Origin: a virus
Strand: one strand, 5' to 3'
Virus record (IMG/VR): IMGVR_UViG_3300044611_002466
Span: 32,001 to 96,000 of that record
Length of the DNA stretch: 64,000 nt
Shown one piece after another: positions 1 through 38,207 of this stretch; the first letter of the stretch is position 1; each line of letters opens with the position of its first letter. The notes below the pieces were generated by a model. It ran no database searches and was not told the DNA's origin. It saw nothing but the letters and a program-made list of their open reading frames with translations. Both the position numbers and the translations under genes were made by a program.

Positions 1-1371
1 GCTGCTGACGCCACGGGAACGCTCACCCGGGCCACCGAGGTAGTCCCCCGCCCTCCTGTGACCGCAGCGGCCGCTGCTCACGCTGCACCTGCTGCGCAGG
101 CCGCTGTCCACGGTGCGCAGGCCGCTGCGGCACACCAAGCCCCGGCTGCCGGACGGGCAGCGGTGAACGGGGCGGGCGGCATCATGCGTCACCTCACGGG
201 ACGCAACGCGCTCATTGCCGCCGGGGCCACCGGCGTCGTAGCGGGTGGAGGGCTGCTCGCTCACCACCTTCTGAAGCGGCCAGCACCGGCGCCAGCTCAG
301 AAGAGCGCCGACGCGCCCATCCCGCTCTCGGCGGCGGCCGCTGGACTGCTGGGCGGCTACTATCCCGGCAAAGCATTGGCCGGGCACACCGCTGCGGGCA
401 TCGCCCCGCATGGGTACAAGACCCGTGCTGACGACATTGCCCGCAAAGCTGCGATCGTCGCGGGACCGGCTGCCGGCATCCTGGCACTCGTCGCCGCGCG
501 GAAGTACGGATTGACCAGGCGCCTGCAAGGCATGCACATGGACCACTTCCCCGCCGGACTCGTCGGAAACTCGGCGGAGGAGCGCGCCCTTCTGGGGTTC
601 GCAGCTCCGACGCTCGCCGGCGGCCTTGGTACTGTTGCAGGCGGTGTTGCCACCGGGGCAGGCATCGGGGGTGTTGCGCGCGTGAAAGACATGTTGACGC
701 GTCGTGCGGCAGAGAAGCAGGCGGAGCACACCCCAGCTCCGGACCCCGGCGTTGTGGCGTCGTCGCTGCAGCCCGTCCTGGCAGCGCTTCTTGCACTCCA
801 TCAGTTCTACTTCTTCGCCCACTGGACCAGCCAGGGTGAGGGGTTCTACGGAGACCACCAGCTGTTCACGCGGCTGTACGAAGGTGCGCAGGAGGACTTC
901 GACAGCGTCGCCGAGCGCCTCGTCGGACACGGTGGCAACCAGGCGCTGGACCCGGCGGCCATCTTCACCCAGGCCTCTGCGATGAGCGCGCAGTGGATCG
1001 GAGAGGGCGCCAGCATCCCCTCAGCCGCGCTCGTAGCGGAGCAGGCAGTGCAAGAGGCGTTGACGAACGCCTACGGCACGATGGACCAGAGCGGAGGCCT
1101 CTCGCTCGGCATCGACGACCTCCTCATGTCCCTGGCCAGCAGACACGAGGGCAACCAGTACCTGCTGAAGCAACGGGACCCCAGTGGTGGCGCCGTCGCG
1201 GCTCCGCCTCAGCAGCTCGAAGTTCCGGACGCGCCGGCTCCGCCCACGCAGGAGCCTGCTGCCGTAGCGGCCCCGCAAGAAGCACCGCCGGCAGCCCCCG
1301 CACCCGCCCAGCCCGGCGCACCAATCAAGACCGCCAGCCTCCGCTCCTTCTTCGCGAGGATCTCCGAATGA
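1..1371 (+). CDS. 5'-partial head-associated polyprotein with Gly/Ala-rich hydrophobic segments and a Dps/ferritin-like domain
   Basis: Frame open from base 1; HWTSQGEGFYGDHQLFTRLYE...DSVAERL matches the Dps-type ferroxidase pattern; KSA, KQA, KTAS motifs. Confidence 0.75.
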   Translation, partial: AADATGTLTRATEVVPRPPVTAAAAAHAAPAAQAAVHGAQAAAAHQAPAAGRAAVNGAGGIMRHLTGRNALIAAGATGVVAGGGLLAHHLLKRPAPAPAQKSADAPIPLSAAAAGLLGGYYPGKALAGHTAAGIAPHGYKTRADDIARKAAIVAGPAAGILALVAARKYGLTRRLQGMHMDHFPAGLVGNSAEERALLGFAAPTLAGGLGTVAGGVATGAGIGGVARVKDMLTRRAAEKQAEHTPAPDPGVVASSLQPVLAALLALHQFYFFAHWTSQGEGFYGDHQLFTRLYEGAQEDFDSVAERLVGHGGNQALDPAAIFTQASAMSAQWIGEGASIPSAALVAEQAVQEALTNAYGTMDQSGGLSLGIDDLLMSLASRHEGNQYLLKQRDPSGGAVAAPPQQLEVPDAPAPPTQEPAAVAAPQEAPPAAPAPAQPGAPIKTASLRSFFARISE

Positions 1372-2882: not shown

Positions 2883-2889
2883 GGGGCGG

Positions 2890-8672: not shown

Positions 8673-9439
8673 GTGCCGAGCTCGGCACGGAGCTCCACCA
8701 TGGGACGGGAGGGATCCACGAGCCCGGCGCCGCTCAGCGCGAGGCCCAGCTCGGTGTCCTCGTGGACCTCGAGGAGGGAGTAGTGGGGCGCTGGAGCATC
8801 CAACACCTCCAGTACTACCCGAGCCCCGATGCTGTGCCGACGGATCCGCTCATGCAGGAGCGGAACTGCCTCGCTGAGAGGGGCGTCGTCCGCGGCGAGC
8901 ACGCCCTCCTCGCAGCCCGGCGCCATCCACCGGACCGGGACCACGATGGAGGTCCGGCGCCCGCTCTCGGTCTCCTCGAACACCCGGGCCGCGAGGTACG
9001 GCGCCAGATGGAGTCGACCCCGCTCCGCATCCCACTCGAGGCCGATACCGCCCCCTACGAGACGACCCTCGACGACCACGCGCCCGGCCGTCTCGAAGAC
9101 ATCCCTGGGGGGCACCCAGAGGTGGTACTGGCGCAGGGGAGCGGGCGCCCCCGCCACACCAAACACGTGCCGACCCTGGACGCGCAGAGTTCCACCATCA
9201 ACGGGAAAGTCCCGCATCGTCGCGTTGATGACGTCCCGGGCGGACACCAGAGTGTCGTCTGACGACACGTAGGGGGCCTGGGCAGCCCACATGCGAGGCA
9301 CACCTCGCTCATCCAGCCCGCCGAGGACGGCCACAGCCGTCCAGTGCGCGGGGATCTTGACGTCTTCCCCGGCCGTCACGCTGGTGGGAGGGAGGTATCT
9401 CCCCTCGACCCCCACCACAAATGCCTTCCTCATCATCAT
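8669..9439 (-). CDS. Hypothetical protein
   Basis: GAGGTG SD; 256 aa; divergent from terminase. Confidence 0.6.
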   Translation of the reverse strand: MMMRKAFVVGVEGRYLPPTSVTAGEDVKIPAHWTAVAVLGGLDERGVPRMWAAQAPYVSSDDTLVSARDVINATMRDFPVDGGTLRVQGRHVFGVAGAPAPLRQYHLWVPPRDVFETAGRVVVEGRLVGGGIGLEWDAERGRLHLAPYLAARVFEETESGRRTSIVVPVRWMAPGCEEGVLAADDAPLSEAVPLLHERIRRHSIGARVVLEVLDAPAPHYSLLEVHEDTELGLALSGAGLVDPSRPMVELRAELGT

Positions 9440-9463
9440 TTTCACCTCGGATGCTGGCGAGAG

Positions 9464-11284
9464 ATGCCAGTACCTTCTTATGACGAGAAGATGAGTCCAT
9501 TTAACGCGTCGGACCCCCTAAGCAGCGCATCCGTGATCAGGCAGCCGTCGGAGGACCGCCTGCTCGAGGAGTACCCCAGCCCCTGGGACTTCGAGCCTCC
9601 GACGCCAGACGCCTCACCGTGGGAGTACGCGAACGCGCTGCAGGACGCCGAAGATCTGATCGAGGTCTCCCCGTCCCAGTTCGTCGAGACCTCGATCTTG
9701 ATGCCAGATGCGGTGTCGAAGACCCTCGTGCCCTTCGATTTCAAGGAGCGCCCGTACCTGCGCCACATCTATGACACGCCGAGCAAGCGCATCCTGTTGA
9801 TGTGCGCTCGGCAGGTCGAGAAGAGTACGACTCTGGGGAACCGGATCCTCGCAGTCTCCTGCATCATCCCGCACTTCCGCACGCTCTACGTGTCTCCGTC
9901 GGCACAGCAGACTCAGGAGTTCAGCAAGACGCGTATCCGCGAGCTGCTCGAGACCTCTTCCGACCTCCGAAGGTGGTTTCCGTCGCACATGACGGACAAC
10001 GTGTTTGAGAAGCGCGCGATCAACCGAAGCACCGTGACGCTGCGGTACGCCTTCTTGAACGCGGACCGCTGTCGCGGACTGCGCGCGGACCTGGTGGCGT
10101 TGGACGAGATCCAGCACATCCACCTCGAGAACATCCCCGTCATCGAAGAGGCCGCATCCCACTCCCCGTACCGGAACTTCATCTACTCGGGCACCCCGCT
10201 CACGCTCGACAACCCGATGGAGCACTACTGGTCGAACTTCTCCACGCAGAACGAGTGGGTGGTGCCGTGCGAGCGCCACGGGGTGCCGAGGGATCCCGGC
10301 TCCTGGCACTGGAACATCCTCGCAGAGGACAACATCGGAAAGTTGGGCCTTATCTGCGACAAGTGTGGCGGGAGAATCAACGCGGCGCACCCGAAGGCGC
10401 AGTGGGTGCCCATGGGCTCCCCCGACCCTACGTTGAGCATCTTCGAGGGGTACCGCATCCCCCAGTTGATGGTTCCGTGGATCGAGTGGAAGGACCTCTT
10501 CACGAAGTACATAAACTACCCGCGCGCGATGTTCTTCAACGAGTGCCTCGGGCTCTCGTTCGACAGTGGGCAGCGGCCGCTGTCGGCGGCCGACATCCAG
10601 GTGAACTGCGATGAGAGGCAGCGCCTCGGTCCCGAGGCCGTGAAGCTATGGCGCGAGAAGCTGGCCGGCGTCCCCCTCTACGGAGGCATCGACTGGGGGC
10701 AGGACAGCTCGAAGTCCTACACCGTGATGAAGGTCGGGGGCTACCTCGAGGGGAAGTTCCGCGTCATCTTCGCGCACCGCTTCGTGGGCGCCGAGTCGGA
10801 CATCCGCGCGCAGATGGACAAGATCTGCCGCATCATCGACACTTTCCAGCTCGCGCGAGTCGGTGTCGACTACGGGGGCGGGCTCCACCCGAACGACGAG
10901 CTCCTGCGGAAGTACGGATCGCAGCGCATCGTGCGCTTCCAGTACTCGACGCCCAGCGTCTACATGAAGTGGGACGCACAGCTGGGGCGCTACGTCATCC
11001 ACCGCTCGGAGGTGATGTCGGCGATCTTCAACGCCATCAAGCGCGGGAACGTCTTCCGCTTCCCATCCTGGAAGGACTTCGCTCAGCCGTTCGCGGCGGA
11101 CATGCTCTCGATCTTCTCGGAGTACAACGAGTTCATGCACATGACGCAGTACAAGAAGACCCCAAACAACACCGACGACTCGTTCCACGCGCTGTTGTTC
11201 ATGACGTGCGCCTCGATGCTGGACGTTCCCCGTCCGGACATCTTCGTCCCGAGTGCGATGATCGACCAGCGCTTGGCGGGCTAA
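9464..11284 (+). CDS. terL: Terminase large subunit (GpA-like, with Cys-containing insert); start 9464 or 9491
   Basis: Walker A CARQVEKST, Walker B LVALDEIQH, SGTP coupling motif, GGIDWG nuclease Asp, C-terminal DDSFHA. Confidence 0.92.
   Translation: MPVPSYDEKMSPFNASDPLSSASVIRQPSEDRLLEEYPSPWDFEPPTPDASPWEYANALQDAEDLIEVSPSQFVETSILMPDAVSKTLVPFDFKERPYLRHIYDTPSKRILLMCARQVEKSTTLGNRILAVSCIIPHFRTLYVSPSAQQTQEFSKTRIRELLETSSDLRRWFPSHMTDNVFEKRAINRSTVTLRYAFLNADRCRGLRADLVALDEIQHIHLENIPVIEEAASHSPYRNFIYSGTPLTLDNPMEHYWSNFSTQNEWVVPCERHGVPRDPGSWHWNILAEDNIGKLGLICDKCGGRINAAHPKAQWVPMGSPDPTLSIFEGYRIPQLMVPWIEWKDLFTKYINYPRAMFFNECLGLSFDSGQRPLSAADIQVNCDERQRLGPEAVKLWREKLAGVPLYGGIDWGQDSSKSYTVMKVGGYLEGKFRVIFAHRFVGAESDIRAQMDKICRIIDTFQLARVGVDYGGGLHPNDELLRKYGSQRIVRFQYSTPSVYMKWDAQLGRYVIHRSEVMSAIFNAIKRGNVFRFPSWKDFAQPFAADMLSIFSEYNEFMHMTQYKKTPNNTDDSFHALLFMTCASMLDVPRPDIFVPSAMIDQRLAG
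9475..9482 (-). promoter_or_regulatory. CATAAGAA motif copy 1
   Basis: 36 nt upstream of the 9439 start; identical copies at 11837 and 12370. Confidence 0.45.
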
Positions 11285-12384: not shown

Positions 12385-13107
12385 TTAGCGCTCCTTCTTT
12401 CGACGGACGCGCGAGAGGAGCGACTCCCGGATGGACGCCGGCGAGTCCAGCAACGACGCGCGCTTGAGCTCTCGGTCTGGATCTGCGTTGTACAGATCGT
12501 CGTAGCAGAGGGCCGCGACCCGAAGACGTCTTCGCCCTTCCGTGAGACGCCGGTGCATCATCTGGAGGTCCAGGTCGGTCTTGTACGAGGGATGCTCGTG
12601 CGTGTAGACGATGAGCGCAATGCAGAGGCGCAAGAACACGCTCCACGGGCGCGCACCGGGTACAGCCGCGGCGACCACCGCGAGGTCCTCCTCGTTGAGC
12701 TGGACGAAGAGCTCCGCCCACTGGGCGAGGGCGTCCACGGTCCAGCCCGTCTTCAGCAGGTCGGCGGTCGCCGCCTCGTGGATGGAGCGCGCAGTCGGAA
12801 CGTCGAGACGCAGCGGAACCTCGTGCATGTCCAGCACGCGCAACACCACGTCCATCTCTGAGCGCAGCCGGCGAAGGGCCGCCTTCAACTCCAGAACCTC
12901 CCCGCGACGCTCGAGGGGGGTCCGTACCGTCTGACGAAGGCGGTCCTTGCGGAGCTCCTCGACCTCGAGTGGTTGCAGCCACTTGCGGCGGCTGTTCGGC
13001 GACTTGGTGGTCGACAGCAGTCCCTGTGCGATGTAGCTCCGCACGGAGCGATGGGTAACTCCGAGGTGTCGTGCGGCTTCTTCGACCGACATCGCTGCTT
13101 CTGCCAT
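12385..13107 (-). CDS. MerR/excisionase-type HTH DNA-binding protein
   Basis: MSVEEAARHLGVTHRSVRSYIAQGLL N-terminal winged HTH. Confidence 0.8.
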   Translation of the reverse strand: MAEAAMSVEEAARHLGVTHRSVRSYIAQGLLSTTKSPNSRRKWLQPLEVEELRKDRLRQTVRTPLERRGEVLELKAALRRLRSEMDVVLRVLDMHEVPLRLDVPTARSIHEAATADLLKTGWTVDALAQWAELFVQLNEEDLAVVAAAVPGARPWSVFLRLCIALIVYTHEHPSYKTDLDLQMMHRRLTEGRRRLRVAALCYDDLYNADPDRELKRASLLDSPASIRESLLSRVRRKKER

Positions 13108-13138
13108 GAACCCCCCGTGCGCGTTGCCGGAAAAGGGA

Positions 13139-13144
13139 TATACT
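13139..13144 (+). promoter_or_regulatory. sigma70-like -10 box (TATACT) upstream of the head operon
   Basis: AT-rich intergenic spot about 40 nt before ATG 13184; no clear -35. Confidence 0.45.
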
Positions 13145-13183
13145 CGGTCGGTACGCGTAACACGGCGCTGGGGTAACCACGAG

Positions 13184-14101
13184 ATGGCCCACTTCTACGA
13201 AGTGACAGAGCACTCCCTGCGGGACTTGTCCTCGCGGGCCGTTGCGCTTTGCCGCGGCTCGCATCCTGAAGGGCCGTGCTCTCCGACGGACGCCGTCATC
13301 AAGGTGGCATCCTCGTTCAGCGACGCACAGCTCACGAATGAGCACATCAAGCGCATTTGTGAGATGACGTACCACGGCATCTTCGAGCAGCGCTTCCAGG
13401 ACAGCACTGGCGGAGACCGGATGATCGCCTTCGACCCCCCTGATGCAGAGAAGGCGGCCAGCGCGCTGCGCGTGCGTCGCCTCGACTCCTTCGCGAAGGC
13501 GGCGTCGGCCTCCCCCGGGAGGGTGGAGACGGGGATGAACAAGAACGCGGATGCACCCCGCCGGCTCGGCCCCCCGGCCCTCACCAACGCGTTCAGCGCT
13601 GCCATGGGCACCTTCAAGGCAGACGAGACCGCGATGCGGAAGGAGGCGCTCTCCACACTTCGACACCTCCACGGGCAGTTGAAGGAGGCGACCGCGTCGC
13701 TTCAGGTCGAGGTCTCCACCGCCGACAGCTCCGAGAAGGTGGCCTTCCTGGACTTGCTCGATGGTGCCGTGCACGCCACCCGACAAGGGGCCACCGCGAC
13801 CGAGGTGACCTCGGTCTGTCTCGAGCTCGCCAAGCGGGCTGGGGTCGACGACGAGCTCGTGCTCTCAGGCCTCGCTACCGACCTGCTGCGCGGACTCGAC
13901 CAGCGTGGTGTCCTCCAGCGCGGGGAGAAGGTGGCCAGCCTGAGCGGCTTGTCCGCGAACACGCGCCACCCGCTGTGTGCGAAGGTGGAGAAGGTGGCCA
14001 GCCTCCGGGGCTACAAGCTCCACGGGGAGATCGCGCTACAGGACCTGCGCCAGCAGATGCACCGAGTGGACCAGGAGATGAAGGATGGCCGCTACCGGTA
14101 G
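13184..14101 (+). CDS. K-x-A-rich putative head/core protein
   Basis: 10 of 15 Lys in K-x-A (KVAS x3, KAAS x2, KNAD, KEA x2, KVAF, KRAG). Confidence 0.75.
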   Translation: MAHFYEVTEHSLRDLSSRAVALCRGSHPEGPCSPTDAVIKVASSFSDAQLTNEHIKRICEMTYHGIFEQRFQDSTGGDRMIAFDPPDAEKAASALRVRRLDSFAKAASASPGRVETGMNKNADAPRRLGPPALTNAFSAAMGTFKADETAMRKEALSTLRHLHGQLKEATASLQVEVSTADSSEKVAFLDLLDGAVHATRQGATATEVTSVCLELAKRAGVDDELVLSGLATDLLRGLDQRGVLQRGEKVASLSGLSANTRHPLCAKVEKVASLRGYKLHGEIALQDLRQQMHRVDQEMKDGRYR

Positions 14102-14369
14102 TGCCCCGCAGGGCCCCCTCACGGAGTGGGCAAAGTCCGCTGGTCTCATCTCCGACGGAGCCACCGCGGCCGGCCGCGGCTTGAGCGCGTTGGGCAAAGG
14201 CGTCTGGCGGGCCGCGGGCGTAGCAGCCCCTAACCCCATCGCACGTGCAGGACTCATCGGTGCGAGCGGCCTCGCCCTCAAGACGCAGGTCCCGCAGCTT
14301 GCCGGGCGTGCGACCCAGGACTACCACTACGCCCACGGTACCACTCCAGCTACGAGTCGAGGATTCTGA
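14085..14369 (+). CDS. Small Gly/Ala-rich head-region protein
   Basis: WAKSAG motif, amphipathic segments. Confidence 0.6.
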   Translation: MAATGSAPQGPLTEWAKSAGLISDGATAAGRGLSALGKGVWRAAGVAAPNPIARAGLIGASGLALKTQVPQLAGRATQDYHYAHGTTPATSRGF

Positions 14370-15358
14370 TGGATGCTGCGCTCATCATTGCTTTGGACGG
14401 GGCTTTCGACGAGGGCCGAGGTGGTGCGGCTGAGGTTGCCCGTACCATGAAGTTGGCTGGCATGTTGGGGCTGCAGAAGGAGGCGCTCAATCTCCCGCCC
14501 AGCGTGATGAACGCCCTCGGCAAGCTCGCGCCTTCCGACACGACGCGCAGCGCCGTCATCAACGGGCTCGCGACCAGCGGCGCGATCGGGGCAGCGGGGC
14601 TGGGCACCCGCGCCCTCTTCTCCGGAGCGCGCGCCTTGGGGGAGCGCTTCTCCAAGAAGAAGGACCTCGAGAAGATCCTGGAGACCTTCCCCCGTCTGAA
14701 GGAGTACCCGCGGGCAGAGGTGGAGCTGGCGTACAACTCCATCAGGCACATGAACCCGCACATCGCGGCCGACCCCCTCGCCGGCGGCTCCCTCCTCGGG
14801 CAGGTGTTGCGTCAACGCGACTCGTTGGACCCGAAGACGATGCGAATGGAGGTCGACCTCGCGGGGAACCTGTTGCGCCTCCGTCCCGAGGACCAGCACA
14901 TCGGAGAGGAGATCGTGCGCGACGCCGTGAGCACCGGCATGGCCATGGGGTTCCAAGAGGCCGCCAAAACGCGCGATCGTCAGATGGCGGAGGCATTTCA
15001 GCGCGCCGAGAACAAGCAGAACCGCGACGCTGCGACGGACGCGCAGACGCGTCAGCTGCGCGCCCAGGGCGGCCAGGCGCAGGCCAGCCTGAACCTCAAG
15101 AAGCAGGAGATGGCCAACCGCGCCAAGGAGATGGCCGCCGCGCGTGCAGCGGCCGAGCGGGACTCGAAGACCGAACACGGACGTCGCGTCTCCCTTGCTG
15201 AGCAGATGCAGAAGTTTCAGCGCGACGAGAACATCGACAGCCACGAGAGGCAGGATCGACGCGAGGGCATCAAGGCGACGTTGCGAGGCACCGTCCCCGG
15301 GCCGACCACTCCAACGCTCAATCAGATCCTCGCCAAATACCCCCACCTGCGCCCCTAA
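14369..15358 (+). CDS. Head-region protein with hydrophobic segment and coiled coil
   Basis: KLAG and KEAL motifs; NGLATSGAIGAAGLG segment. Confidence 0.7.
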   Translation: MDAALIIALDGAFDEGRGGAAEVARTMKLAGMLGLQKEALNLPPSVMNALGKLAPSDTTRSAVINGLATSGAIGAAGLGTRALFSGARALGERFSKKKDLEKILETFPRLKEYPRAEVELAYNSIRHMNPHIAADPLAGGSLLGQVLRQRDSLDPKTMRMEVDLAGNLLRLRPEDQHIGEEIVRDAVSTGMAMGFQEAAKTRDRQMAEAFQRAENKQNRDAATDAQTRQLRAQGGQAQASLNLKKQEMANRAKEMAAARAAAERDSKTEHGRRVSLAEQMQKFQRDENIDSHERQDRREGIKATLRGTVPGPTTPTLNQILAKYPHLRP

Positions 15359-17248: not shown

Positions 17249-17306
17249 GTAGCCACCATAGTGGCGATAGAAGCCCTCCTCTCTGCGAACACCTCGGAGC
17301 TCCCAG

Positions 17307-18580: not shown

Positions 18581-18590
18581 GGCGTCCGTC

Positions 18591-20445: not shown

Positions 20446-20449
20446 ATCC

Positions 20450-20478
20450 TTCAAGCTCCCACGACCCTGCGTTACAGT
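20450..20478 (+). promoter_or_regulatory. sigma70-type promoter for decoration + MCP
   Basis: TTCAAG (20450-55), 17-nt spacer, TACAGT (20473-78). Confidence 0.6.
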
Positions 20479-20504
20479 AGGGACAGCCCCTTCGCGAGGA
20501 CACC

Positions 20505-21041: not shown

Positions 21042-21100
21042 GATTCGCTGCAACATGCGGTACCAGCACCCCTCCATCCTGATCCCCTGAGGACACCACC

Positions 21101-24131: not shown

Positions 24132-24902
24132 ATGGAGACCCCCTGGACCACCCGAGTCTCGCTCGAGCACCGCATCGCTGCGGCCGACCTGTGGATGGAG
24201 TTCACGGGCCGCAAGAATGCGTCCGCCCCGGGGTCCATCAAGGAAGCAAACGGCGACATGGTCGCGGACCAGAAGGCGCCCAGCCGCGGCCTCGGGGCCC
24301 CGGCACGCGGAGCTCTCGCCGGAGGGGTAACGGGTGCGGGTCTCGCGGGGGTCGCGACGCACTACGCCAACAAGGGACTTGCGGCGGGAGCTCCACGCAT
24401 CTCGCGTGGCTTGGCTGCGCTCGGAGGCGGGACTGTTGGCGCGGGGGTTGGGGCTACGCTCGGGGCGGGCTACCTCATCCACAAGGCGATGAAGGCACAC
24501 ACTGACGCGTCGACGAAGACAGGATCCGCCGCCGAGTCGATGCTCGTGTACCTGCGCTCCCACCCGCGTGCCGCCGCCGCCGTTGGCGCCGCCCTGCTTG
24601 CCACGCCAGCAGCGGCAGGGGGGTACCTCCACGAGAAGGCCCGGCACACGGCCGGCGGAGGCGGGAAGAGCAAGTACGAGATCGACAACGCCCTGGAGCT
24701 GGAGAAGCACCGAGCTCACACGGAGCACGCGGGCACGGACTCCGCCGTGTCGAAGTTGAAGGAGAAGTACCTGCGCATGAAGGAGCGAGCAGGGGTGGAG
24801 GCACGGGAAGATCCTCGCCGCGCTGCTCTCTACGGGGCTCTGCCGTACGGACTGCTCGCGGGGACGACTGGCGCCACGCTCGTACCCCGGCTGCTTCGGT
24901 GA
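24132..24902 (+). CDS. K-x-A protein with four glycine-zipper/hydrophobic segments
   Basis: KNAS, KEAN; GALAGGVTGAGLAG, GLAALGGGTVGAGVGATLGAG and others. Confidence 0.7.
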   Translation: METPWTTRVSLEHRIAAADLWMEFTGRKNASAPGSIKEANGDMVADQKAPSRGLGAPARGALAGGVTGAGLAGVATHYANKGLAAGAPRISRGLAALGGGTVGAGVGATLGAGYLIHKAMKAHTDASTKTGSAAESMLVYLRSHPRAAAAVGAALLATPAAAGGYLHEKARHTAGGGGKSKYEIDNALELEKHRAHTEHAGTDSAVSKLKEKYLRMKERAGVEAREDPRRAALYGALPYGLLAGTTGATLVPRLLR

Positions 24903-27016: not shown

Positions 27017-30000
27017 ATGGCATCCGAAAACCGCGTTGGTGTGGAAGTCACGCAGACCATCTCCGAGAAGGCCACCGTCCCCGTCCTGCCCTCGCTGGTT
27101 CCGGCGGTGGTCGGGGTGTGTCGCCAGATCGTGGAGACCACAGACAAGGACGGCGCCCTGAGCGCGGATGCCAAGTACCCGAGCGGTCGGTACAACCAGG
27201 CATCGTTGTACATCCCGCAGGCAGACTTCCCCAACCCGCGAGACAACATCGACGAGCTCAACATCGACGAGGGCACTGTCGGTGTCTCCCTCTACTTCGG
27301 TGGTCAGCTGCGCGAGCTCGACCGCGGAAGCAACGACGCCTACGGGTCGGCGCTGCTCAAGCTGGTGAACCTGAGCCGCGCTGCTGCCTTCCAGACGTCC
27401 GAGGAAGCCAGCTTCGCGTTCGACGCGACGGTGGGGAACCCCATCACGATCGCCTTCGACGTGGTGAACCCGGAGAACGTGTCCTCGGACATCACGATCA
27501 CCTTTGTGGGGACGCTGACGGTGTCCGAGGTGGTCGCCCGCTTCAACGAGGTCGTCGGAGCGACCGTCGCCACCGTCGTGGGTAGTGTCATGCAGGTGAC
27601 CTCCCCGACGTTCGGTGCGACCTCCAGCATCACGGTGCGCGCGGGCTCTTCGGCCTTGCCGATCCTCTTCGGGTCGTCCTTCAGTGCAGAGCTCGAGCAC
27701 CGCGTCGTCGGGGCCGGTTTCCACGGCCAGGACGACGCAGACGGCGACCTTGTCACTCCCTGGATCGAGTTCTCCCGCGGTGGCTACTTCACGAAGGACT
27801 CGAGCGGGGTGACCACGACCGTGTCCTCGTTCCCGGTGTCGCCGACGTCCAACGTGATGTGGGTGGGCCAGGTGGACCTCGACGGCACCTTCAACACCGC
27901 GAAGGCCGCCGCCGTCTCCTACACAGGCACGTCCGCTACCGTGCCCCTGCGTGCTGCGACCGCATCGATCCCCGGGGACCAGATGTGGGCCGGCGGTGCC
28001 CAGGTCGGCAGCGGCGAGATCATCAAGGTCGAGGCCAGTCGGTTCAAGATCGGCAAGCTCAACAACTCGCTGTCGACCTTCGATGAAGACGGCGCCCCGG
28101 TGAACCGCGTCTACGACACGGTCGAGGTGAACACCGAGAACCACGGGACGCCGTTCGCCCCCAAGTACGCCTATTTCCGGGCCCTCGGGCTTGCCTACGG
28201 GAGCATCACCCCGGAGGGCGAGGCCGCCACTCTCACAGGTGGGAACGCGGGCCTGGATGAGCGCCCTGCCATCGTCCAGAGCTCGACGGACATCACGTTC
28301 CCGCTGAGCCCCGCCAGCCTCACCCTCAACTTCCAGGTCACCGAGGATGGGATCGAGGGAGACGAGGTGACCTACACGTTCGCCGGCGGCCCCTACGCCA
28401 ACATCGCTGCGCTGGTGGCGCTGCTCGCCGCCGCCGACGAGTTCAGCCAGATCACCGTCGGCAACCAGGGGAATCGGCTCGTGCTCAGCACCACGAAGAG
28501 TGGTGCGGATCAGAGCATCTCGATCAAGACGACGGGTACCGCGAACACCGCGCTCAAGTTCTCCACCTCCGCTGCGACTGCCGATGTCGGCAAGGACGTC
28601 GAGTTCGCCACGCAGGCGGTGCTGGAGAGCGACGTCTTCGCGCTCCCGATGGCGGCGGAGACGTCGCTCGTGTTCGGGCTCACGGTCGAGGACTCGAAGG
28701 GCGTTCACACCGTGACGTCGGACGCGGTGACCCTCGCGTCTGTCACCAACTTCACGACGCTCATCGACGCGATCTGCGAGGCCTTCGGCTCGGCCAACGG
28801 CACCACGGACCCGACCATCTACGATGGCGGCATCGCCATCGCGACGCTGAGTTCCTCCGGCGGGACCGACACCACGGGCACGCTCACGATCACCACGATC
28901 GAGGGCGGCAGTGCCGTGTCTCTGGAGTTGCTGGCTGTCGATGAGACGGACGGGTGGCGCTTCCTTGGTTTCCACGACGACACCGGCGGTACCTCCGCGG
29001 TGCTCGACTCGGGCGGCGGCGTCACGGACTTCGTCGACCTCGCCGGCCTCTGGGTGATCGCCGGCACCAGCGGCTTCAGCCTGGAGATCATCGGCGGCGT
29101 GAACGCCTTCTCCGTGGCGGACATCACCATCCCGGCGGCGACCTACGATGCGACCCAGCTGGCGACCGCGATGCAGGTCGCCATTCGGACCGCCATCGGC
29201 GGCAGCGCGACTGTCACGGTCGCGTGGGTCGACGCTGGGTACTTCCTGGTCACCGCACCTGGTGCGTCGGACATCACCATCGCCCCGCGGGGAGCTGGGA
29301 CGGATCGCAGCGCGTCGATCTTCGGGAGCGCCCCGGTCGGCGCGGCCACCACCTGGACCGGCTCTGCGCCCACGCAGACCCGACTCACGATCGAGCTGAC
29401 CGTCGCCTACAACGGCACCGAGGACGTCATCACCGGCCTCGCCACCTACGCGATGGCCGCCGCGGCAGACGCAGAGGCGCTTGCAGAGCTGCTCAACGCG
29501 TCGACCGACTTCTCCGGGCACACCGTCGCGGGAGAGCGGCTGGTGGAGTGGTTCTCCGCCGACAACGACGTGGTGTCCGTCCGCTCTATCAAGGGCGGTG
29601 CCCTCGCCTCCATCGAGTACGCGGCTGCGCAGCCCGGTCTTGTGGCCATCGGCTTCGACGCCGGCGGTCTGAGCGACAACGGCGCAGCGCTGGGCGGCAA
29701 CTCCGACAGCATCGGAGAGGACGGCCTGAAGAGCACCGCGCTGCTCTTCAGCCTCGACGACAATCCGTACGAGTACGAGATCACCTTCGACAGCAACTCC
29801 CTCATGGACGCCATCGGTCTCATCAACGAGGCCGTCGACGGCTCTGACGACGTGGCCACCGAGGGTGAGGGCGTGCTCGTGTTGACGAGCTTGCTCGCTG
29901 GCGCGGCGAGCAAGGTCTCCATCAACTCCGAGGATGGCAGCGCGGCGGCTGTTCTCGGCCTCTCGGGCACCGACGAGGGCGCCGGCCGGCCGAACCCCGA

Positions 30001-31504
30001 CTTCTACCTGGACGGGGACGGCGCGATCCACGTCGGCCCGAACATCCTGCGCAACAAGAGCTCCGGCATCCCGTTCTCGCTCGCGTCGGCGCTCGCAGAC
30101 ATCTACGTGTCGTACACCGCGCTGCGTAGCGATGTGACCGCCTCCGCGGTGGCCCCGTCGCTGCTGGCCTTCAGCGACGTCGCCACTCTGGAAGCCAGCA
30201 TCGGTCCCATCAGCACCAACAACCCCCTGGCGTTGGGCACCTTCCTCGCCATGGTCAACTGCCCGACCTACCAAGTCAGCGCGCTCGGTGTCGACGAGGC
30301 GAGTGCGGCGGCCCCGTTCGGTACCCTGGATGGCTGGAGCCGCGCGATCGGGTTCCTGGAGAGCAAGGAGATCTACGCGCTGGCTCCGCTCACCGATGAC
30401 GAGTACGTCCAGGGGCTCCTGGCCACTCACGTGCTCGCGATGAGCGCCCCGACTGAGCGCGGTGAGCGCATCCTGCTCATCTGGCAGCCCATCCCCTCGC
30501 GGGCGGACACCATCACGGTGTCCAGCGGGGAGGACGGCGCGACGAACGGGACGAGCAACTCCTTCACCCTCGGGTCGAACCCGAACTCCGACCTCCTCGC
30601 CAACGACATCGACCCGACCGATGCGATCGAGGTGAGCGAGAACCTCTACCTCGAGCTGGTGGTCGCCAGTTCCGGTGCCACGGAGCTGCGGCGCTACTCG
30701 GTGTCGGAGGTCAATGGCGTGGTCCTCACGCTGCGCACGACCTTCGCCACCGACGAGAACGTGGATGGGTTCTTCACGACGGCGACGCTCAGCGAGGATC
30801 TCTCCGCGGTCGACTACTCGCTGAAGATCCGCGGGGCCGAGCTGCTCATCGCCGGGACCGCCATCCCCGACCTCTCGGCGCGAGCCGCCGCGGCCGCCTC
30901 GGCGGCAACCCCGTACGCCAGCAGGCGTGTCTACCTGCTGGCCTGCGAGGCGGTCGACACCAGCATCGACGGCGTGACGCAGAAGGTCGAGGGCTTCTAC
31001 GCCGCCGCGGCGGTGGCGGGCATGGTTGCCCAGCAGGCCCCGCAGCAGCCCTTCACCCACTTCCCGATTGGCGGAATCGGGAAGGTGTACGGCACCGATG
31101 ACACGTACAGCGAGCGACAGCTCGACGTCGTCGCGGACGGTGGCAGGTACGTGCTGGTGAACATGGGAGGCGCGGTGGTCTCCCGCAAGCAGCTCTCGAC
31201 CTCCACCACCAGCATCCAGAGCATGGAGATGTCGATCACCCGTGCGATCGACTACCTCGCCAAGGCCCTTCGCCTGACCCTCCGGGTCTTCATCGGGCGT
31301 TCCAACATCTCGTCCGGCTTCCTGGACCAGGTCACGATGGCGATCGAGGGGGCCCTCGACTACCACGAGAACCAGAAGGTGGTCAACAAGGCGGAGCTCA
31401 AGGAGCTCCTTCAGGATGAGAACCGCCCCGACACCGTGATCATCGAGGTGGAGGTCGAAGTGGCCTACCCCTGCAACAAGATCAAGGTCACCATCGTCTC
31501 CTGA
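27017..31504 (+). CDS. Tail sheath protein with large repeated-domain insertion (1495 aa)
   Basis: N-terminal RVGVEVTQ..VPAVVG and C-terminal EVEVAYPCNKIKVTI sheath motifs; followed by tube. Confidence 0.85.
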   Translation: MASENRVGVEVTQTISEKATVPVLPSLVPAVVGVCRQIVETTDKDGALSADAKYPSGRYNQASLYIPQADFPNPRDNIDELNIDEGTVGVSLYFGGQLRELDRGSNDAYGSALLKLVNLSRAAAFQTSEEASFAFDATVGNPITIAFDVVNPENVSSDITITFVGTLTVSEVVARFNEVVGATVATVVGSVMQVTSPTFGATSSITVRAGSSALPILFGSSFSAELEHRVVGAGFHGQDDADGDLVTPWIEFSRGGYFTKDSSGVTTTVSSFPVSPTSNVMWVGQVDLDGTFNTAKAAAVSYTGTSATVPLRAATASIPGDQMWAGGAQVGSGEIIKVEASRFKIGKLNNSLSTFDEDGAPVNRVYDTVEVNTENHGTPFAPKYAYFRALGLAYGSITPEGEAATLTGGNAGLDERPAIVQSSTDITFPLSPASLTLNFQVTEDGIEGDEVTYTFAGGPYANIAALVALLAAADEFSQITVGNQGNRLVLSTTKSGADQSISIKTTGTANTALKFSTSAATADVGKDVEFATQAVLESDVFALPMAAETSLVFGLTVEDSKGVHTVTSDAVTLASVTNFTTLIDAICEAFGSANGTTDPTIYDGGIAIATLSSSGGTDTTGTLTITTIEGGSAVSLELLAVDETDGWRFLGFHDDTGGTSAVLDSGGGVTDFVDLAGLWVIAGTSGFSLEIIGGVNAFSVADITIPAATYDATQLATAMQVAIRTAIGGSATVTVAWVDAGYFLVTAPGASDITIAPRGAGTDRSASIFGSAPVGAATTWTGSAPTQTRLTIELTVAYNGTEDVITGLATYAMAAAADAEALAELLNASTDFSGHTVAGERLVEWFSADNDVVSVRSIKGGALASIEYAAAQPGLVAIGFDAGGLSDNGAALGGNSDSIGEDGLKSTALLFSLDDNPYEYEITFDSNSLMDAIGLINEAVDGSDDVATEGEGVLVLTSLLAGAASKVSINSEDGSAAAVLGLSGTDEGAGRPNPDFYLDGDGAIHVGPNILRNKSSGIPFSLASALADIYVSYTALRSDVTASAVAPSLLAFSDVATLEASIGPISTNNPLALGTFLAMVNCPTYQVSALGVDEASAAAPFGTLDGWSRAIGFLESKEIYALAPLTDDEYVQGLLATHVLAMSAPTERGERILLIWQPIPSRADTITVSSGEDGATNGTSNSFTLGSNPNSDLLANDIDPTDAIEVSENLYLELVVASSGATELRRYSVSEVNGVVLTLRTTFATDENVDGFFTTATLSEDLSAVDYSLKIRGAELLIAGTAIPDLSARAAAAASAATPYASRRVYLLACEAVDTSIDGVTQKVEGFYAAAAVAGMVAQQAPQQPFTHFPIGGIGKVYGTDDTYSERQLDVVADGGRYVLVNMGGAVVSRKQLSTSTTSIQSMEMSITRAIDYLAKALRLTLRVFIGRSNISSGFLDQVTMAIEGALDYHENQKVVNKAELKELLQDENRPDTVIIEVEVEVAYPCNKIKVTIVS

Positions 31505-33688: not shown

Positions 33689-36106
33689 ATGTTGTCCGCC
33701 TCGAGCTCTGCGGGGCATCGCGTCCCCCTACCTCCGCGTGCTGTTGCCGGGGGGCGCATCTTCGCCGAGCTCGGGACCAAGCTCGCGGACCTGATGCCCG
33801 CTCCGACGCAGCCGAGCTCGGCCCTTCGCCCTGGCGTGGAGTTCCGTCCCCACCAGGAGGACGCCATCCAGAAGGCCATGCGGCAGAACGGCAACCTGCT
33901 GCTGAGCCACCCAGTCGGCTCCGGCAAGACGGTCACGGCCATCGGCGCGTTCGAGCGGCTGCGGCAGGCAGGGAGGGCCACGCGGGCCCTCATCGTGACC
34001 CCGGCCTCCCTGCGGAAGAACTTCACCGACGAGGGAGTGCACAAGTTCACGACGGACCACTGCACCGTGTTCGGCAACGCCCAGGAGGTGGCCGCGGGTC
34101 AGGGCCGAGCTCTCGACAACCCGGACCCCGACTCCCGCTACCACGTGGTCAGCTACGACCTCTTCCGCGCGGCCCCCGAGGCGTACATCAAGGCCTCTGG
34201 GGCGGACACCGTCATCTACGACGAGCTCCACAAGATCAAGAACATCGGTGCCACGGGCAAGGCGCTGAAGGACGCCAGGAAGTTCCACCGGAACTTCATC
34301 GGCCTCACGGGCTCCATCGTCAGCAACACCCCTGCCGACCTGGTACCGCTCATCGACGCCATGACGGACGGGAAGCATCACCTGGGCACCAAGGAGAACT
34401 TCGAGCGGAGGTTCATGACCGACGACGGGAAGCTGCAGAACACGCCCATCGTGCGGATGTTGTTGAACCCCTACATCCACCACGTCGACGCCGCGGCGAG
34501 CTCCGGCAACATGCCGGTGAAGGAGACGGAGACCATCAAGGTCGACATGTCCCCCGAGCAGCGCGAGCTCTACCAGTACGTCGTGGGGAGGATGGATCCG
34601 GTCACCGCGCTGAAGTTCCGCTTTGGCACGTCGAAGCTGAAGACCAACGACGTCAACAACATCTTCAACAAGATGACCCAGGCGAGGCAGGTCTCCAACG
34701 CCATCCACACGGTCAACAAGTCGGTGACGCTCTCTGAGAGTGCAGAGCGCTCTCCGAAGATTCGGAAGATCCTGGACGACGTGGAGGACCACCTCAGGGA
34801 CACGCCAGACGGCCAGGTCATCATCTACTCGAACATGATCCACGGCGGCCTCGACGTCATCGGGCAGGGCCTGCGCGACCGCGGCATCGACCACGGGATC
34901 TTCATGGGCAAGGGCCAGCCCGGGTCCACCGAGAAGAGCCGGACGCAGGCGGTCTCGGACTACCAAGCTGGCAAGAAGAAGGTCATCCTCCTCTCCTCCG
35001 CCGGTGGCGAGGGGCTGAACCTCGGCAACACGACCTTCGTGGCCAACGTCGATGGACACTTCAACCCTGAGAAGATCCACCAAGCAGAGGCCCGCGGTGT
35101 GCGCGCCGGCGGGCAGGCCCACCGCGCCCAGGCCGATCGCAAGGTCATCGTCAGGCGCTACGTCACGAGGGTCCCGCTCTCGACGTCGACGGTCCTCAAG
35201 GACACGATGAACCTCGTCGCGCCCAGCCAGATCATCACGCGGGCCCTGGAAGGGCAGCCGGTGTTCTACAACCCCCTGAAGAGGGAGCGGTCTCCGGACG
35301 AGTGGGCTTACGAGGTCGCAGGGCTAAAGGACGAGCGGAACAAGGCTCTCCGCGGCAACCTCGACAAGTCGGCTGAGCAGGTGCCGGACAGCGTCGAGGA
35401 CATGTTGGACCTCCTCGAGGCAGGCGTTGTCGCGCGAGCGGAGGACCGAGCACTGCCGCTGGTGAAGGAGGCCGTTGCGAAGGTGGACCACAAGGAACGG
35501 CGGATGGCCGCCGACCGCATTCCGATGCAACCGCACCGGCTCGTCAAGTCCGACCGCGTCGTGATGAACGCGTACATGAAGGAGTTCTCCCCCCACCTCG
35601 AAGAGGCCACGGACCCGGCCACGGTCGCGCTCCCCGCGGACAAGCAGCTGCGCGAGCAGGAGTACATCGCTGCGCTCCGGGCCTACTACCGGGAGGCAGC
35701 CAAGGGAGGCGGTACCGGACTGTCGAAGGCCACGACAGACGAGGAGCGGAAGAAGGAGGTGTGGCGCAATGCCGCGCTCGCCGGAGGCATCGGAACCGTC
35801 TGGGGCGGTACGCAGGGCACAGTTCAGGCGGTGGCCGGCGGCCTGCCCCTCACACACTCGCTGATGTTTGGCGCGGGGACGGCCGCCCTCCTCGGCGGTA
35901 CCTTCGGTGGCATGACCCTCTGGGATGGGATGCGCAATCCCGCCTACAGCACTCCCGCCACGCGTGCCAGGAAGACCGGCAAGCTGACCGACGCTCAGAT
36001 GGTACAGCTCCTCCGCGGCCTGGAGGTGCAGCAGAAGGAGGAGAAGACCCACCGATTCGCCGTAGGATCCACTCCTCGGGCTACCACTACTACCCTCCCT
36101 TCTTGA
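33689..36106 (+). CDS. SNF2-family helicase/ATPase with K-x-A sites and hydrophobic C-terminal tail
   Basis: FRPHQ, GSGKT, DELH, LTGS, SSAGGEGLNL, QAEARGVR motifs. Confidence 0.9.
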   Translation: MLSASSSAGHRVPLPPRAVAGGRIFAELGTKLADLMPAPTQPSSALRPGVEFRPHQEDAIQKAMRQNGNLLLSHPVGSGKTVTAIGAFERLRQAGRATRALIVTPASLRKNFTDEGVHKFTTDHCTVFGNAQEVAAGQGRALDNPDPDSRYHVVSYDLFRAAPEAYIKASGADTVIYDELHKIKNIGATGKALKDARKFHRNFIGLTGSIVSNTPADLVPLIDAMTDGKHHLGTKENFERRFMTDDGKLQNTPIVRMLLNPYIHHVDAAASSGNMPVKETETIKVDMSPEQRELYQYVVGRMDPVTALKFRFGTSKLKTNDVNNIFNKMTQARQVSNAIHTVNKSVTLSESAERSPKIRKILDDVEDHLRDTPDGQVIIYSNMIHGGLDVIGQGLRDRGIDHGIFMGKGQPGSTEKSRTQAVSDYQAGKKKVILLSSAGGEGLNLGNTTFVANVDGHFNPEKIHQAEARGVRAGGQAHRAQADRKVIVRRYVTRVPLSTSTVLKDTMNLVAPSQIITRALEGQPVFYNPLKRERSPDEWAYEVAGLKDERNKALRGNLDKSAEQVPDSVEDMLDLLEAGVVARAEDRALPLVKEAVAKVDHKERRMAADRIPMQPHRLVKSDRVVMNAYMKEFSPHLEEATDPATVALPADKQLREQEYIAALRAYYREAAKGGGTGLSKATTDEERKKEVWRNAALAGGIGTVWGGTQGTVQAVAGGLPLTHSLMFGAGTAALLGGTFGGMTLWDGMRNPAYSTPATRARKTGKLTDAQMVQLLRGLEVQQKEEKTHRFAVGSTPRATTTTLPS

Positions 36107-36146
36107 GGGACATCGCCGACGGGCGCGTCGAGTTACAGGGAGGCCC

Positions 36147-38207
36147 ATGTCTGAACTACCCCCCTCCGTAGAGCGAGCCATCGGTACCACCGTGCACTGG
36201 GCCGCCTTCGCGGACGAGCTCGGGAAGCAGGCTGCCGTGGTGGAGGTCGCACACAACTTCCACCCCGTCGTCGTGCAGCCTCCGCGGGCGAAGCGTGCGA
36301 AGTTCCCCTTCACTGGCTTTATCGACTTCCAGGGCATCAAGATCGACGTCGAGAACAAGAAGGGCGAGTACCGCCGCGGGAAGGACAAGGACGGGCACGA
36401 GTGGAAGTGCCTGATGCACTCGCACTACGGCGAGATCCGGGACACGGAGGGCACCGACGGCGACAAGCTCGACGTCTACGTTGGCCCCAACCACGACTCG
36501 AGCTTGGTCGTGGTCGTTCGACAGCTCAAGCCAGACACAGGAGCCTTCGACGAAGACAAGGTGATGCTCGGGTACGACTCAGTGGAAGAGGCCATCGGAG
36601 CCTATAAGAAGCAGTATGACAAGCCTGGCTTCTACAAGGACGGTGGCCACAAGGTGATGCCGATCGGTGAGTTCTGGCGGTGGGTGCACGACCGCGAGAA
36701 CTACGGCAAGAAGGTGGCTGGATTCCTACATGACCTGACCGGCAGAAGTCTGGACGAGGCGCGCAAGGCGCACGTGCGTAGGGTGGAAGAACACAATGCC
36801 CACCTGCAGGGCGCGATCCGCGACTACGACGAGATGCGTGACTTGGTGGAGCAGTCAGCCCGATGGAAGTCGACGAGGCTTGGGAGGCACCGCAAGCGCC
36901 TTGCCGACGCCGCCAAGTCCGTCGAGCGTATTGCGGCCCTGGCTCCTCCGCATTTCGACCCCTCTCCGATCGCCAGGAGGATCCGAAACACGCGTCTCGG
37001 CACCGCGGCTGTTCTCGGTGGGGGCGCGTTGCTCACGGGGCTTGCCGCGCACCGTCACAGACAACCCGAGGCGAAGAAGGCGGCGGCCCCCCTGGACGCG
37101 GGGGTGCGAGAGTTCGCCCTGCACCCTCGTCTCCAGAAGGCGCTGGGTGGTGTAGCCGCCGCCGGAGGCCTGTACGCGGGGTACAAGTACCGCCAGCGGG
37201 AGCGCCTGAAGGAGCTGGAGTCCGGCACGCCCAGTATGGGCAGACACGCGCTGGAAGGAGGAGCAGCGGGCGTCCTCGCAGGCGCGAGTCTCGGCGGAGC
37301 AGCGGTACACAAGGCCAAGCCCGTGCTCGCGCGGATGCGGGACCTTACTGCACCAGTCGCGGCAGCTATGACAGAGAGCGCCAAGACGATGCGGAACTCG
37401 GGGATGTCCCCGGAGAAGATCAAGCAGACCGTTCTCCAGAACCCCGTGTCCGTCAAGGGACTGCACGTGGCGCGAGCAGGGCATGCGGCGCACCTGCTCC
37501 ACGGGAAGCTCAGTGTCGGGAGGGGTGCCCTGGCAGGCGCAGCCATCGCTGGTATTGCTGGCGCCGGGCTCGCGGCACGCGGCGCACGCGGAGACGAGGC
37601 GAAGGCTGACCTCCGCGGAGAGCAGCGACGGCTCAAGCGCGGCCCGTACGCCCAGCCTAAGGAGGCCGGTGCGAGCCCCCTCTCTGCGGCGGGGACTGCT
37701 ACTCCCAGCGGCCTCGTAGCACGGAACAAGATGCAGAAGACGGCGCCCCCGCACTACACCCCACCGCCTGCTGCCGTACAGGTCGCGCCCTCGCCGTGGA
37801 CAAAGGGAGCGGACGCTGAGCTGCCCGGCGTCGGTGACGAGGGAGAGCGGCCGCACATCCCTGGGATGAAGCAGCCTCGCCTGGCCACTCCACGCCTGAA
37901 CCCCGACCAAGGGAAGCACATCCCCACGAACCCCTTCCGCGGCAGCTGGAAGAAGCTGGGAGGCGGTCCCTTACACGAGGTCGCCGAGGTGGCGCACCAC
38001 TTGACCGCTGCGATCCCTGAGAAGGTGAAGCACGGCATCCTGGGCGCTGGCATCTTGGGCGCGGGGGCCCTGGGGCTAAAAGCAACCGCCGACCAGGTGG
38101 TCAATCCCCGCCCTGAGGGGGTTGGCTTAGGCGCTGGAGCGCGAGCCGGCCAGAAGGCTCTGACTCTTGGGCTCTCGCGGGCTGGATCGGGGCCCGTGCA
38201 GTATTAG
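36147..38207 (+). CDS. Polyprotein: inorganic-pyrophosphatase-like (InPase-type) domain plus multiple glycine-zipper modules
   Basis: IDVEN.KG..R.G.D..G..W...M..HYG.I..TEG.DGD.LDVYVGP...FDEDKVMLG; K-x-A sites between modules. Confidence 0.8.
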   Translation: MSELPPSVERAIGTTVHWAAFADELGKQAAVVEVAHNFHPVVVQPPRAKRAKFPFTGFIDFQGIKIDVENKKGEYRRGKDKDGHEWKCLMHSHYGEIRDTEGTDGDKLDVYVGPNHDSSLVVVVRQLKPDTGAFDEDKVMLGYDSVEEAIGAYKKQYDKPGFYKDGGHKVMPIGEFWRWVHDRENYGKKVAGFLHDLTGRSLDEARKAHVRRVEEHNAHLQGAIRDYDEMRDLVEQSARWKSTRLGRHRKRLADAAKSVERIAALAPPHFDPSPIARRIRNTRLGTAAVLGGGALLTGLAAHRHRQPEAKKAAAPLDAGVREFALHPRLQKALGGVAAAGGLYAGYKYRQRERLKELESGTPSMGRHALEGGAAGVLAGASLGGAAVHKAKPVLARMRDLTAPVAAAMTESAKTMRNSGMSPEKIKQTVLQNPVSVKGLHVARAGHAAHLLHGKLSVGRGALAGAAIAGIAGAGLAARGARGDEAKADLRGEQRRLKRGPYAQPKEAGASPLSAAGTATPSGLVARNKMQKTAPPHYTPPPAAVQVAPSPWTKGADAELPGVGDEGERPHIPGMKQPRLATPRLNPDQGKHIPTNPFRGSWKKLGGGPLHEVAEVAHHLTAAIPEKVKHGILGAGILGAGALGLKATADQVVNPRPEGVGLGAGARAGQKALTLGLSRAGSGPVQY

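Follow-up and report, generated by a model that had tools for sequence, protein, structure and literature searches.

In tailed phages as in herpesviruses, proteolytic maturation is one of the steps that define capsid assembly. The assemblin-scaffold precursor of herpesviruses, for example UL26 of HSV-1, is cut at a release site and a maturation site of the form (V/L)-x-A|S. In phage T4 the capsid targeting sequences of the internal proteins (IPI-III and Alt) are removed by gp21. The proteases of T4, phiKZ, 201phi2-1 and SPN3US all cut after Glu (PMC5694885).

Here we describe the head genes of a phage represented by one 188,230-bp contig with a GC content of 66% (IMG/VR record IMGVR_UViG_3300044611_002466). 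The window, by which we mean the whole stretch of 64,000 bp that was analyzed, comprises bases 32001–96000 of that contig, and coordinates are window positions unless marked "genome". The head module (13106–22267) encodes a prohead protease with a long C-terminal extension (15359–17248) among proteins rich in the motif Lys-x-Ala (K-x-A). K-x-A followed by a small residue is probably the substrate motif of this protease, acting as the phage's own capsid-maturation enzyme. Genes were called by third-position GC bias, their starts are our own calls, and all window genes and sites given below lie on the plus strand.

Results

K-x-A is enriched in the head module

A reading of this stretch made earlier from the letters alone (the sequence-only reading) had counted by hand how often Lys is followed by x-Ala in four proteins, and its counts proved exact. 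As the null for each open reading frame (ORF) we used shuffles of that protein's own composition. The motif holds 11 of the 24 Lys residues in the 504-amino-acid (aa) protein encoded at 1368–2882 (3.0 expected, p ~2e-4), 10 of 15 in protein A (13184–14101, 305 aa; 2.0 expected, p ~2e-4, and p 2e-6 in a separate scan of head genes) and 11 of 20 in protein D (17307–18377, 356 aa; 4.6 expected, p ~0.002). The tail sheath (27017–31504, 1495 aa; PHROG tail sheath, E 2e-11), our internal negative control, has 2 of 30 Lys residues in K-x-A with 3.9 expected. The excess is weaker in protein F (20071–20445, 124 aa), where four of the five Lys residues lie in K-x-A and 0.8 sites are expected, in protein E (18408–19841, 477 aa; 8 vs 4.1), in a small head-module protein (19841–20074, 77 aa; 2 vs 0.4, at aa 11 and 30) and in the protease itself (4 vs 1.5).

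We also scanned all 400 ordered residue pairs without bias, at spacings 0–3, over nine head ORFs with per-protein shuffles. K-x-A came out on top by a wide margin: 56 occurrences vs 20.8 expected, z 8.7, with the runner-up at z 3.5 and no other pair above z 4.3. The same scan detected no excess of Lys-x-small pairs other than K-x-A, of Arg-x-Ala or of x-x-E in these ORFs. K-x-A is at chance in three control blocks, namely tail (z -0.1), minus-strand (z 1.2) and other late genes (z -0.8), whose own top pairs reach z 3.4–5.3, and it is likewise at chance in the replication genes. Genome-wide, we found no depletion of K-x-A in non-substrate proteins. Strong excess across the genome is limited to about seven head-module ORFs and one ORF at genome 8007–9038, about 23 kb before the window start, which encodes 343 aa, has 11 of its 14 Lys residues in the motif and is the most K-x-A-saturated ORF of the genome. 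It lies directly upstream of a probable portal gene (genome 10428–12521, 31% identical to gene 0261 of Vibrio phage D181).

The excess over a composition-shuffled null, which the sequence-only reading had expected, is thereby borne out for the head ORFs, and its statement that the capsid protein and the protease themselves carry the motif holds. Its description of the motif as virion-wide, over positions 1–38207, is too broad, the tail block being at chance. Of the roughly 15 ORFs in which it saw the motif recur, strong enrichment applies to about seven in the head module; the larger figure stands only if genes with a single N-terminal site, about 12 in number, are counted.

The DNA pattern AAR-NNN-GC occurs 53 times in the coding frame vs 2 and 2 times in the two others, and the Ala codons at K-x-A sites show ordinary usage. 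Because it is coding-frame-specific and its Ala codons are used in the ordinary way, K-x-A is a protein-level signal; a nucleotide-level motif is ruled out by the frame test. The residue following Ala at the 53 head sites is Ser in 17, Gly in 10 and Ala in 8 (3.9, 5.2 and 7.4 expected), so that one of the three follows in 35 of 53, while K-x-A in other genes is followed by background residues. The flanks on the other side are biased too, towards L/I/M at -2 and E/T at -1 from Lys. Many residues are tolerated at the middle position (V, E, A, L, T, W, C). In full, the consensus reads [L/I/M]-[E/T]-K-x-A-[S/G/A].

As a positive control, the identical pair scan was applied to gp67, gp68, gp21 and gp22 of T4, and its top pairs were IxE (z 4.2) and LxE (z 4.0). 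I/L-x-E is the experimentally established motif of T4 gp21 (PMC5694885). The scan thus recovers the known T4 motif, and the pair statistic reports prohead-protease specificity where the answer is known. The K-x-A signal in the window phage is stronger than the I/L-x-E signal of T4.

Conservation of K-x-A among relatives

A megablast comparison of the head region with phage records gave zero nucleotide-level matches. Protein comparisons relate the phage to Salmonella phage Arash (181 kb), to Vibrio phages D69, D148 and D181 (187 kb) and, more distantly, to Bacillus phage G. The window genome shares with these relatives the protease domain, the capsid protein, the sheath, a tube-region protein, a helicase and an RNA polymerase of the virion block. 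The gene order terminase ... A, protease, D, E, F, capsid protein is kept across all fetched loci.

K-x-A is the top pair in the head genes of Arash (46 vs 21.2 expected, z 6.2) and D181 (51 vs 22.6, z 6.8), and in the metagenomic loci L012 (47 vs 24.3, z 5.1; protease 42% identical) and L013 (47 vs 20.7, z 6.7; protease 37% identical). It is about twofold enriched, and again the top pair, in six closer metagenomic contigs (among L003–L010) with a GC content of 46–67%. The enriched proteins always occupy equal positions: a protein of about 300 aa two to three genes upstream of the protease, the protease, the protein after it, and a protein of about 125 aa two genes before the capsid gene. No BLAST similarity was detectable between the K-x-A-rich core proteins of Arash and D181 and those of the window phage, so the motif is kept while the surrounding sequence changes. 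In four alignments the pair with the highest conservation is K-x-A (0.65, the mean being 0.32). We found no relative in which a diverged protease is accompanied by an altered motif; every relative to 30% identity still has K-x-A. In phage G, K-x-A is enriched in gp19 and gp21. Conservation of the motif in homologues, which the sequence-only reading had named as a check, is thus seen: K-x-A is the top pair in the head module of every relative put through the pair scan and keeps its position at sites of the capsid protein, the protease and proteins A and F.

The major capsid protein

The gene at 21101–22267 encodes 388 aa and has a third-position GC content of 0.94, the highest in the window. 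A tblastn search matched it to Arash gp226 (E 2e-19), which carries the annotation major capsid protein, and to the D181 homologue; on this homology and on gene position we identify the product as the major capsid protein. Codons 28–30 (21182–21190) encode K28-C-A30, followed by Ala, and the N-terminus of the mature protein is predicted to lie near residue 31. This N-terminal K-x-A is aligned in 9 of 9 sequences, including Arash and D181. In a wider set of capsid homologues K-x-A occurs within the first 45 aa in 119 of 120, near residue 23–29 and as KTAA in 111, vs 16% of other 45-aa windows. An AlphaFold2 (AF2) model of the capsid protein built from a 22-sequence alignment had a predicted local distance difference test (pLDDT) score of 39.7, too poor for assessing an HK97 fold, and was not used. 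Further K-x-A sites at aa 315–317 (22043–22051) and 375–377 (22223–22231) are kept among close homologues, and one of the two lies about 12 residues from the C-terminus.

The protease

The 629-aa product of 15359–17248 has a catalytic domain at approximately aa 44–290 and K-x-A sites at aa 10, 37, 422 and 611. It gave a weak PHROG match to the head maturation protease family phrog_18299 (E 5e-5), and the family search recognised only one head protease in the head module. No Pfam family was found for it or for any of 36 homologues, so it is without HK97 gp4-type or T4 gp21-type family membership; a PDB profile search with the protease alignment yielded a chance match only and no true sequence match. 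Its homologues in metagenomes form 2443 clusters (50% identity) at E <= 1e-3.

The AF2 model of aa 1–300 has a pLDDT of 84.9. Its top structural match among 965 chains is T4 gp21 (5jbl_B; Z 9.4 over 131 residues, root-mean-square deviation 2.8). Ranks 2–37 are taken by about 36 herpesvirus protease entries, which cover model residues 57–285 with scores in the middling range of Z 5.3–8.0, and after these the scores drop to Z 4.4, with unrelated folds. As modelled, the product of 15359–17248 is a protease of the T4 gp21/herpes assemblin fold.

The candidate catalytic residues are His138 (codon 15770–15772, motif RHH) and Ser194 (codon 15938–15940, motif DTSMG, on a predicted beta strand at 192–198). 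Both are invariant in a 36-sequence alignment (A1) that extends down to 33% identity. They are spaced by 56 residues vs 55 for His85 and Ser140, which we take to be the catalytic residues of T4 gp21, the comparison being one of spacing. On these sequence grounds His138 and Ser194 are likely the catalytic pair. A zinc-site-like cluster, Cys204-x-x-Cys207 ... Cys218-x-His220 (15968–16018), lies inside the catalytic domain; C204, C207 and C218 are invariant in A1 and His220 is kept in 9 of 9 aligned proteases. We know of no CxxC...CxH-type cluster in T4 gp21 or the herpes assemblins.

K-x-A sites border the catalytic domain. K37-V-A39 (15467–15475), a predicted self-processing site just before the domain, falls within the only disordered stretch of the model (aa 25–41, pLDDT < 50). 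It is aligned in seven of nine relatives, including Arash and D181, and the other two, L009 and L010, have a K-x-A 3–6 residues upstream. Across the family, 45 of 46 anchor-bearing members have K-x-A 10–50 aa upstream of the domain anchor, and 203 of 216 (94%) have one just after the catalytic domain, mostly K-[LIAV]-A-S. In the window phage and in L005, the closest fetched relative, the next site after the domain is the invariant K422-W-A424. Near the C-terminus, K611-T-A613 (17189–17197), followed by Ser, stands 16 residues before the end of the protein, whose tail is ...LLFHLAYW, and is kept in six of seven close relatives. K-x-A is present in the last 60 aa of 172 of 242 proteases, with a median of 22 residues after Ala, vs 45% of other 60-aa windows. 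A complex prediction for the protease domain and residues 22–75 of protein A scored 0.02, which speaks neither for nor against their interaction.

Inteins (Pfam Intein_splicing, Hint_2, LAGLIDADG_3) occur in many relatives, including P0002, P0007, P0028 and P0053. The intein-bearing protease genes of some of them have products of about 1010–1046 aa vs about 630 aa. An intein is also present in the terminase gene of L005 (L005:2796–5882), and large intein-bearing ORFs occupy the terminase position in L012 (L012:1–3169) and L013 (L013:2244–4751). The protease and terminase of the window phage are intein-free.

Candidate substrates

Protein A is probably a scaffold or internal core protein. The proteins syntenic to it in eight relatives have 8–14 K-x-A each. 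Its alignment, at 20–47% identity, keeps only 19 columns invariant; K40/A42 and K120/A122 belong to these, and the remaining sites shift by a few residues within gap-rich variable linkers. Several K-x-A sites of protein D are kept in six relatives. All four sites of protein F are kept positionally in most of six relatives, which have 4–6 sites each, and are the best-conserved elements of the protein. The K-x-A-rich proteins had no family matches in Pfam or PHROGs, and ESM Atlas look-ups for 13184–14101 and 1368–2882 gave nothing usable.

The first site of the 1368–2882 protein is at aa 6–8 (MSLPTKIA|G). A longer ORF starts at 993, and 993–1367 is an Arg/Pro/Gly-rich stretch that looks like non-coding high-GC read-through; the ATG at 1368 is the likely start. 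The ORF 993–2882 did not align with the syntenic 634-aa ORF of L007.

Single sites close to the N-terminus form another group. Twelve plus-strand genes of the virion block have K-x-A[SGAT] within the first 35 aa, against an expectation of 3.5 (p 1e-4); among the remaining genes the figure is 4 vs 6 expected. The 329-aa protein encoded just upstream of the protease (14369–15358) is not enriched in K-x-A and has K-L-A|G at aa 28. K-N-A|S stands at aa 28 of a virion-block protein (24132–24902), which makes this protein a candidate leader-bearing substrate. The 686-aa protein encoded at 36147–38207 has K-Q-A|A at aa 27 and is a candidate for a packaged enzyme: it contains a Pfam InPase domain (PF18823, E 2e-38, aa 57–180) and matches PHROG families of minor head and virion proteins. 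An InPase domain is also found in one protease homologue in A1 (E 1e-24); in a relative, then, the module can be joined to the extension of the protease.

Several of these proteins contain Gly-rich or Gly/Ala-rich uncharged segments: protein D at aa 194–216 and 298–317 (glycine-zipper-like), protein E at aa 338–365 and 378–402, the 24132–24902 protein at aa 93–116, and the InPase-domain protein in two places. Gly/Ala-rich uncharged segments occur solely in K-x-A proteins, namely these four and two ORFs that are not in the window.

Beyond the window end, a 443-aa ORF (genome 134818–136149) has KTAA, KTAA and KTAS at aa 63, 167 and 294, and a 291-aa ORF (genome 152493–153368) has K-R-A|T at aa 10.

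Other genes of the window

The large terminase is encoded at 9344–11284. A SNF2/DEAD-type helicase (33689–36106) lies inside the structural gene block, and its Arash homologue, gp217, is reported among virion proteins (PMC10585845). The tail sheath is homologous to Arash gp236 and to the D181 sheath, the homology being in the sheath C-terminus. Its 1495 aa are roughly double the 706 aa of the Arash protein and the 701 aa of the D181 protein, and the alignment to them covers only the C-terminal third of the product.

Discussion

Taken together, these data make it probable that K-x-A followed by a small residue is read by the protease encoded at 15359–17248. From the enrichment, the conservation, the positions of the sites and the fold of the protease we infer the cleavage itself, the exact bond and the enzyme responsible. 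The sequence-only reading had proposed a K-x-A|(S/A/G) code read by the phage protease; the comparative evidence, the fold and the T4 control support that proposal. If cleavage is granted, we slightly favor a cut after Ala over the alternatives. The cut is placed there by analogy, because the enzymes of T4, phiKZ and herpesviruses use a P3-x-P1 register.

Alternatively, the motif might have no reader at all and arise from the composition or structure of helical scaffold proteins rich in Lys and Ala. The enriched proteins do have a high Ala content (13–23%), probably consist for the most part of helix or disordered sequence, and give poor in silico folds. However, the shuffles keep each protein's composition, the i, i+2 spacing is not the helical period, and neither another Lys-x-small pair nor Arg-x-Ala is enriched. 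The signal is frame-specific, and isolated single sites are invariant in globular proteins such as the capsid protein and the protease. This explanation is close to refuted. A second alternative grants the motif a reader but no cut: K-x-A would be a docking or capsid-targeting motif, for example a repeated anchor of core proteins to the shell interior, the protease or the scaffold. Enrichment and conservation show a functional short motif and not a scissile bond, several copies per protein would suit avidity binding, and part of the protein D sites belong to a longer repeat. Nevertheless, the sites flank the catalytic domain of the protease and sit about 25 residues from the capsid N-terminus, where maturation cuts classically fall; a small residue is preferred after Ala, in keeping with a protease subsite, and the analogous enrichment in T4 is that of a cleavage motif. 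We therefore give docking little credence.

It is similarly improbable, in our estimate, that K-x-A is a cleavage signal with the cut after Lys (K|x-A), or one whose reader is a protease of the host or another protease of the phage. The bond cannot be deduced from sequence, cutting specific for Lys is common among serine proteases, and the middle residue is very tolerant. Yet the characterised enzymes of the gp21/assemblin fold all use the P3-x-P1 register (PMC5694885 and established knowledge). As for another enzyme, a single head protease is recognised in the module, and the hosts of the clade differ widely (Salmonella, Vibrio and those of contigs with GC 46–67%) while the motif travels with the phage protease gene.

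Several observations weigh against cleavage of K-x-A by the phage protease. Over the four alignments, Lys is no better conserved within K-x-A than elsewhere (0.68 vs 0.64, p 0.35). Some K-x-A sites of protein D are embedded in a longer repeat, F-x-K-x-A-A-A-E-G-I/L-D-L, whose role is possibly structural. The window phage and L005 are without the K-x-A that follows the domain in most of the family (16200–16300, aa 285–320), and the capsid protein of phage G is without K-x-A. The scissile bond is not readable from sequence, and the candidate catalytic residues were assigned from invariance and spacing. We found no published K-x-A cleavage data for the window phage or its relatives. Proteome coverage in Arash is 85–100% for K-x-A-rich proteins and even for non-structural enzymes, and is given without peptides, so it neither supports nor refutes cleavage (PMC10585845); the multi-omics study of phage G used strictly tryptic searches and does not report cleavage sites (PMC12484599).

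If the protease does read K-x-A, the proposed events would take place inside the assembled prohead. The protease would free its own catalytic domain, in the window phage by the cut before the domain and in 94% of relatives also by one just after it, and would detach from a C-terminal tail of about 16 residues. It would trim about 30 residues off the N-terminus of the capsid protein. The K-x-A-rich core or scaffold proteins 13184–14101, 17307–18377 and 20071–20445 would be fragmented, after which their pieces could leave or rearrange, and 18408–19841 and 1368–2882 would probably be fragmented as well. Short N-terminal leaders would be cut from a further dozen virion-block proteins.

A more far-reaching version of the same scheme appears unlikely to us. 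It treats K-x-A as a general "load, then cut" code, by which various cargo would enter the prohead on leaders and linkers that end in K-x-A, and takes the herpes-like Ala|Ser specificity and the architecture of the protease extension to be an ancestral state shared with assemblins. The cargo candidates would be the InPase-domain enzyme, a protein whose several domains are separated by KTA[A/S], and glycine-zipper segments of basic character. The sequence-only reading had already pictured membrane-active peptides and free enzymes packaged in the head. Glycine-zipper-like segments and an InPase domain are present in K-x-A proteins; their release as such peptides or enzymes is speculation.

A limited literature search, which is not proof of absence, found no report of a K-x-A or Ala-ending specificity in a phage prohead protease. 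The sequence-only reading knew of no characterised phage with this specificity either, and we found none; its statement that T4 and phiKZ cut after Glu agrees with the literature (PMC5694885). Our results partly support capsid maturation by a prohead protease with an undescribed, Ala-ending specificity in a very large unannotated family. This family of 2443 clusters, outside Pfam and carried by phages of 100–500 kb in many environments, appears to use an Ala-ending code, as herpesviruses do. If this is true, the sequences of thousands of uncultured large phages could serve to predict mature ends, scaffold fragments and candidate ejected cargo, and annotation would gain, the protease and most of its substrates being "hypothetical" at present. 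It would also add a data point on the evolution of specificity between phage and herpesvirus capsid proteases. Relatives in culture, namely Arash, the Vibrio D phages and phage G, make the prediction directly testable. Arash and D69, D148 and D181 have a homologous protease domain at 30–35% identity, and gp19 of phage G has one at 29%; Arash and D181 also have a homologous capsid protein.

Among described systems, T4 gp21 is the closest in several respects. It is the best structural match of the window protease and has a similar His-to-Ser spacing. Its gene is likewise a head-module gene flanked by genes for core and scaffold proteins, with the capsid gene in the same module. Like phiKZ gp175, the 201phi2-1 enzyme and SPN3US gp245, it recognises a three-residue motif with fixed first and third positions. 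Systems of this type combine many sites in core proteins with single N-terminal capsid sites and self-processing, and the same pattern is predicted for the window phage. The motifs themselves differ, being I/L-x-E in T4 and (S/A/G)-x-E in phiKZ, 201phi2-1 and SPN3US, whereas that of the window phage ends in Ala. The window protease also differs in length, 629 aa with a C-terminal extension of about 340 residues vs 212 aa for T4 gp21, in the invariant CxxC...CxH cluster of its domain, and in having no sequence-level membership in the T4 gp21-type families, with neither a Pfam nor a PDB sequence match. The 12 virion-block genes with an early K-x-A[SGAT], including that of the InPase-domain protein, may encode a counterpart of the T4 capsid targeting sequences, which are short N-terminal leaders ending in the protease motif.

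The likeness to the herpesvirus precursor is more distant. The two have no sequence similarity, and the window phage is a bacterial virus with a contractile tail. The window motif has Lys at P3 in place of the Val/Leu of herpes assemblin, while Ala at P1 and Ser at P1', as inferred here, would be common to both, and the folds match at Z 5.3–8.0. The arrangement in the phage protease family of an N-terminal protease, a site after the domain, a long extension and a site about 20 residues before the C-terminus resembles the release and maturation sites of the herpes precursor; the window phage itself has only the C-terminal site of these, the post-domain site being absent. On the middling fold scores and the positions of the herpes sites, the organisation of this protease family recalls that of the herpesvirus assemblin-scaffold precursor.

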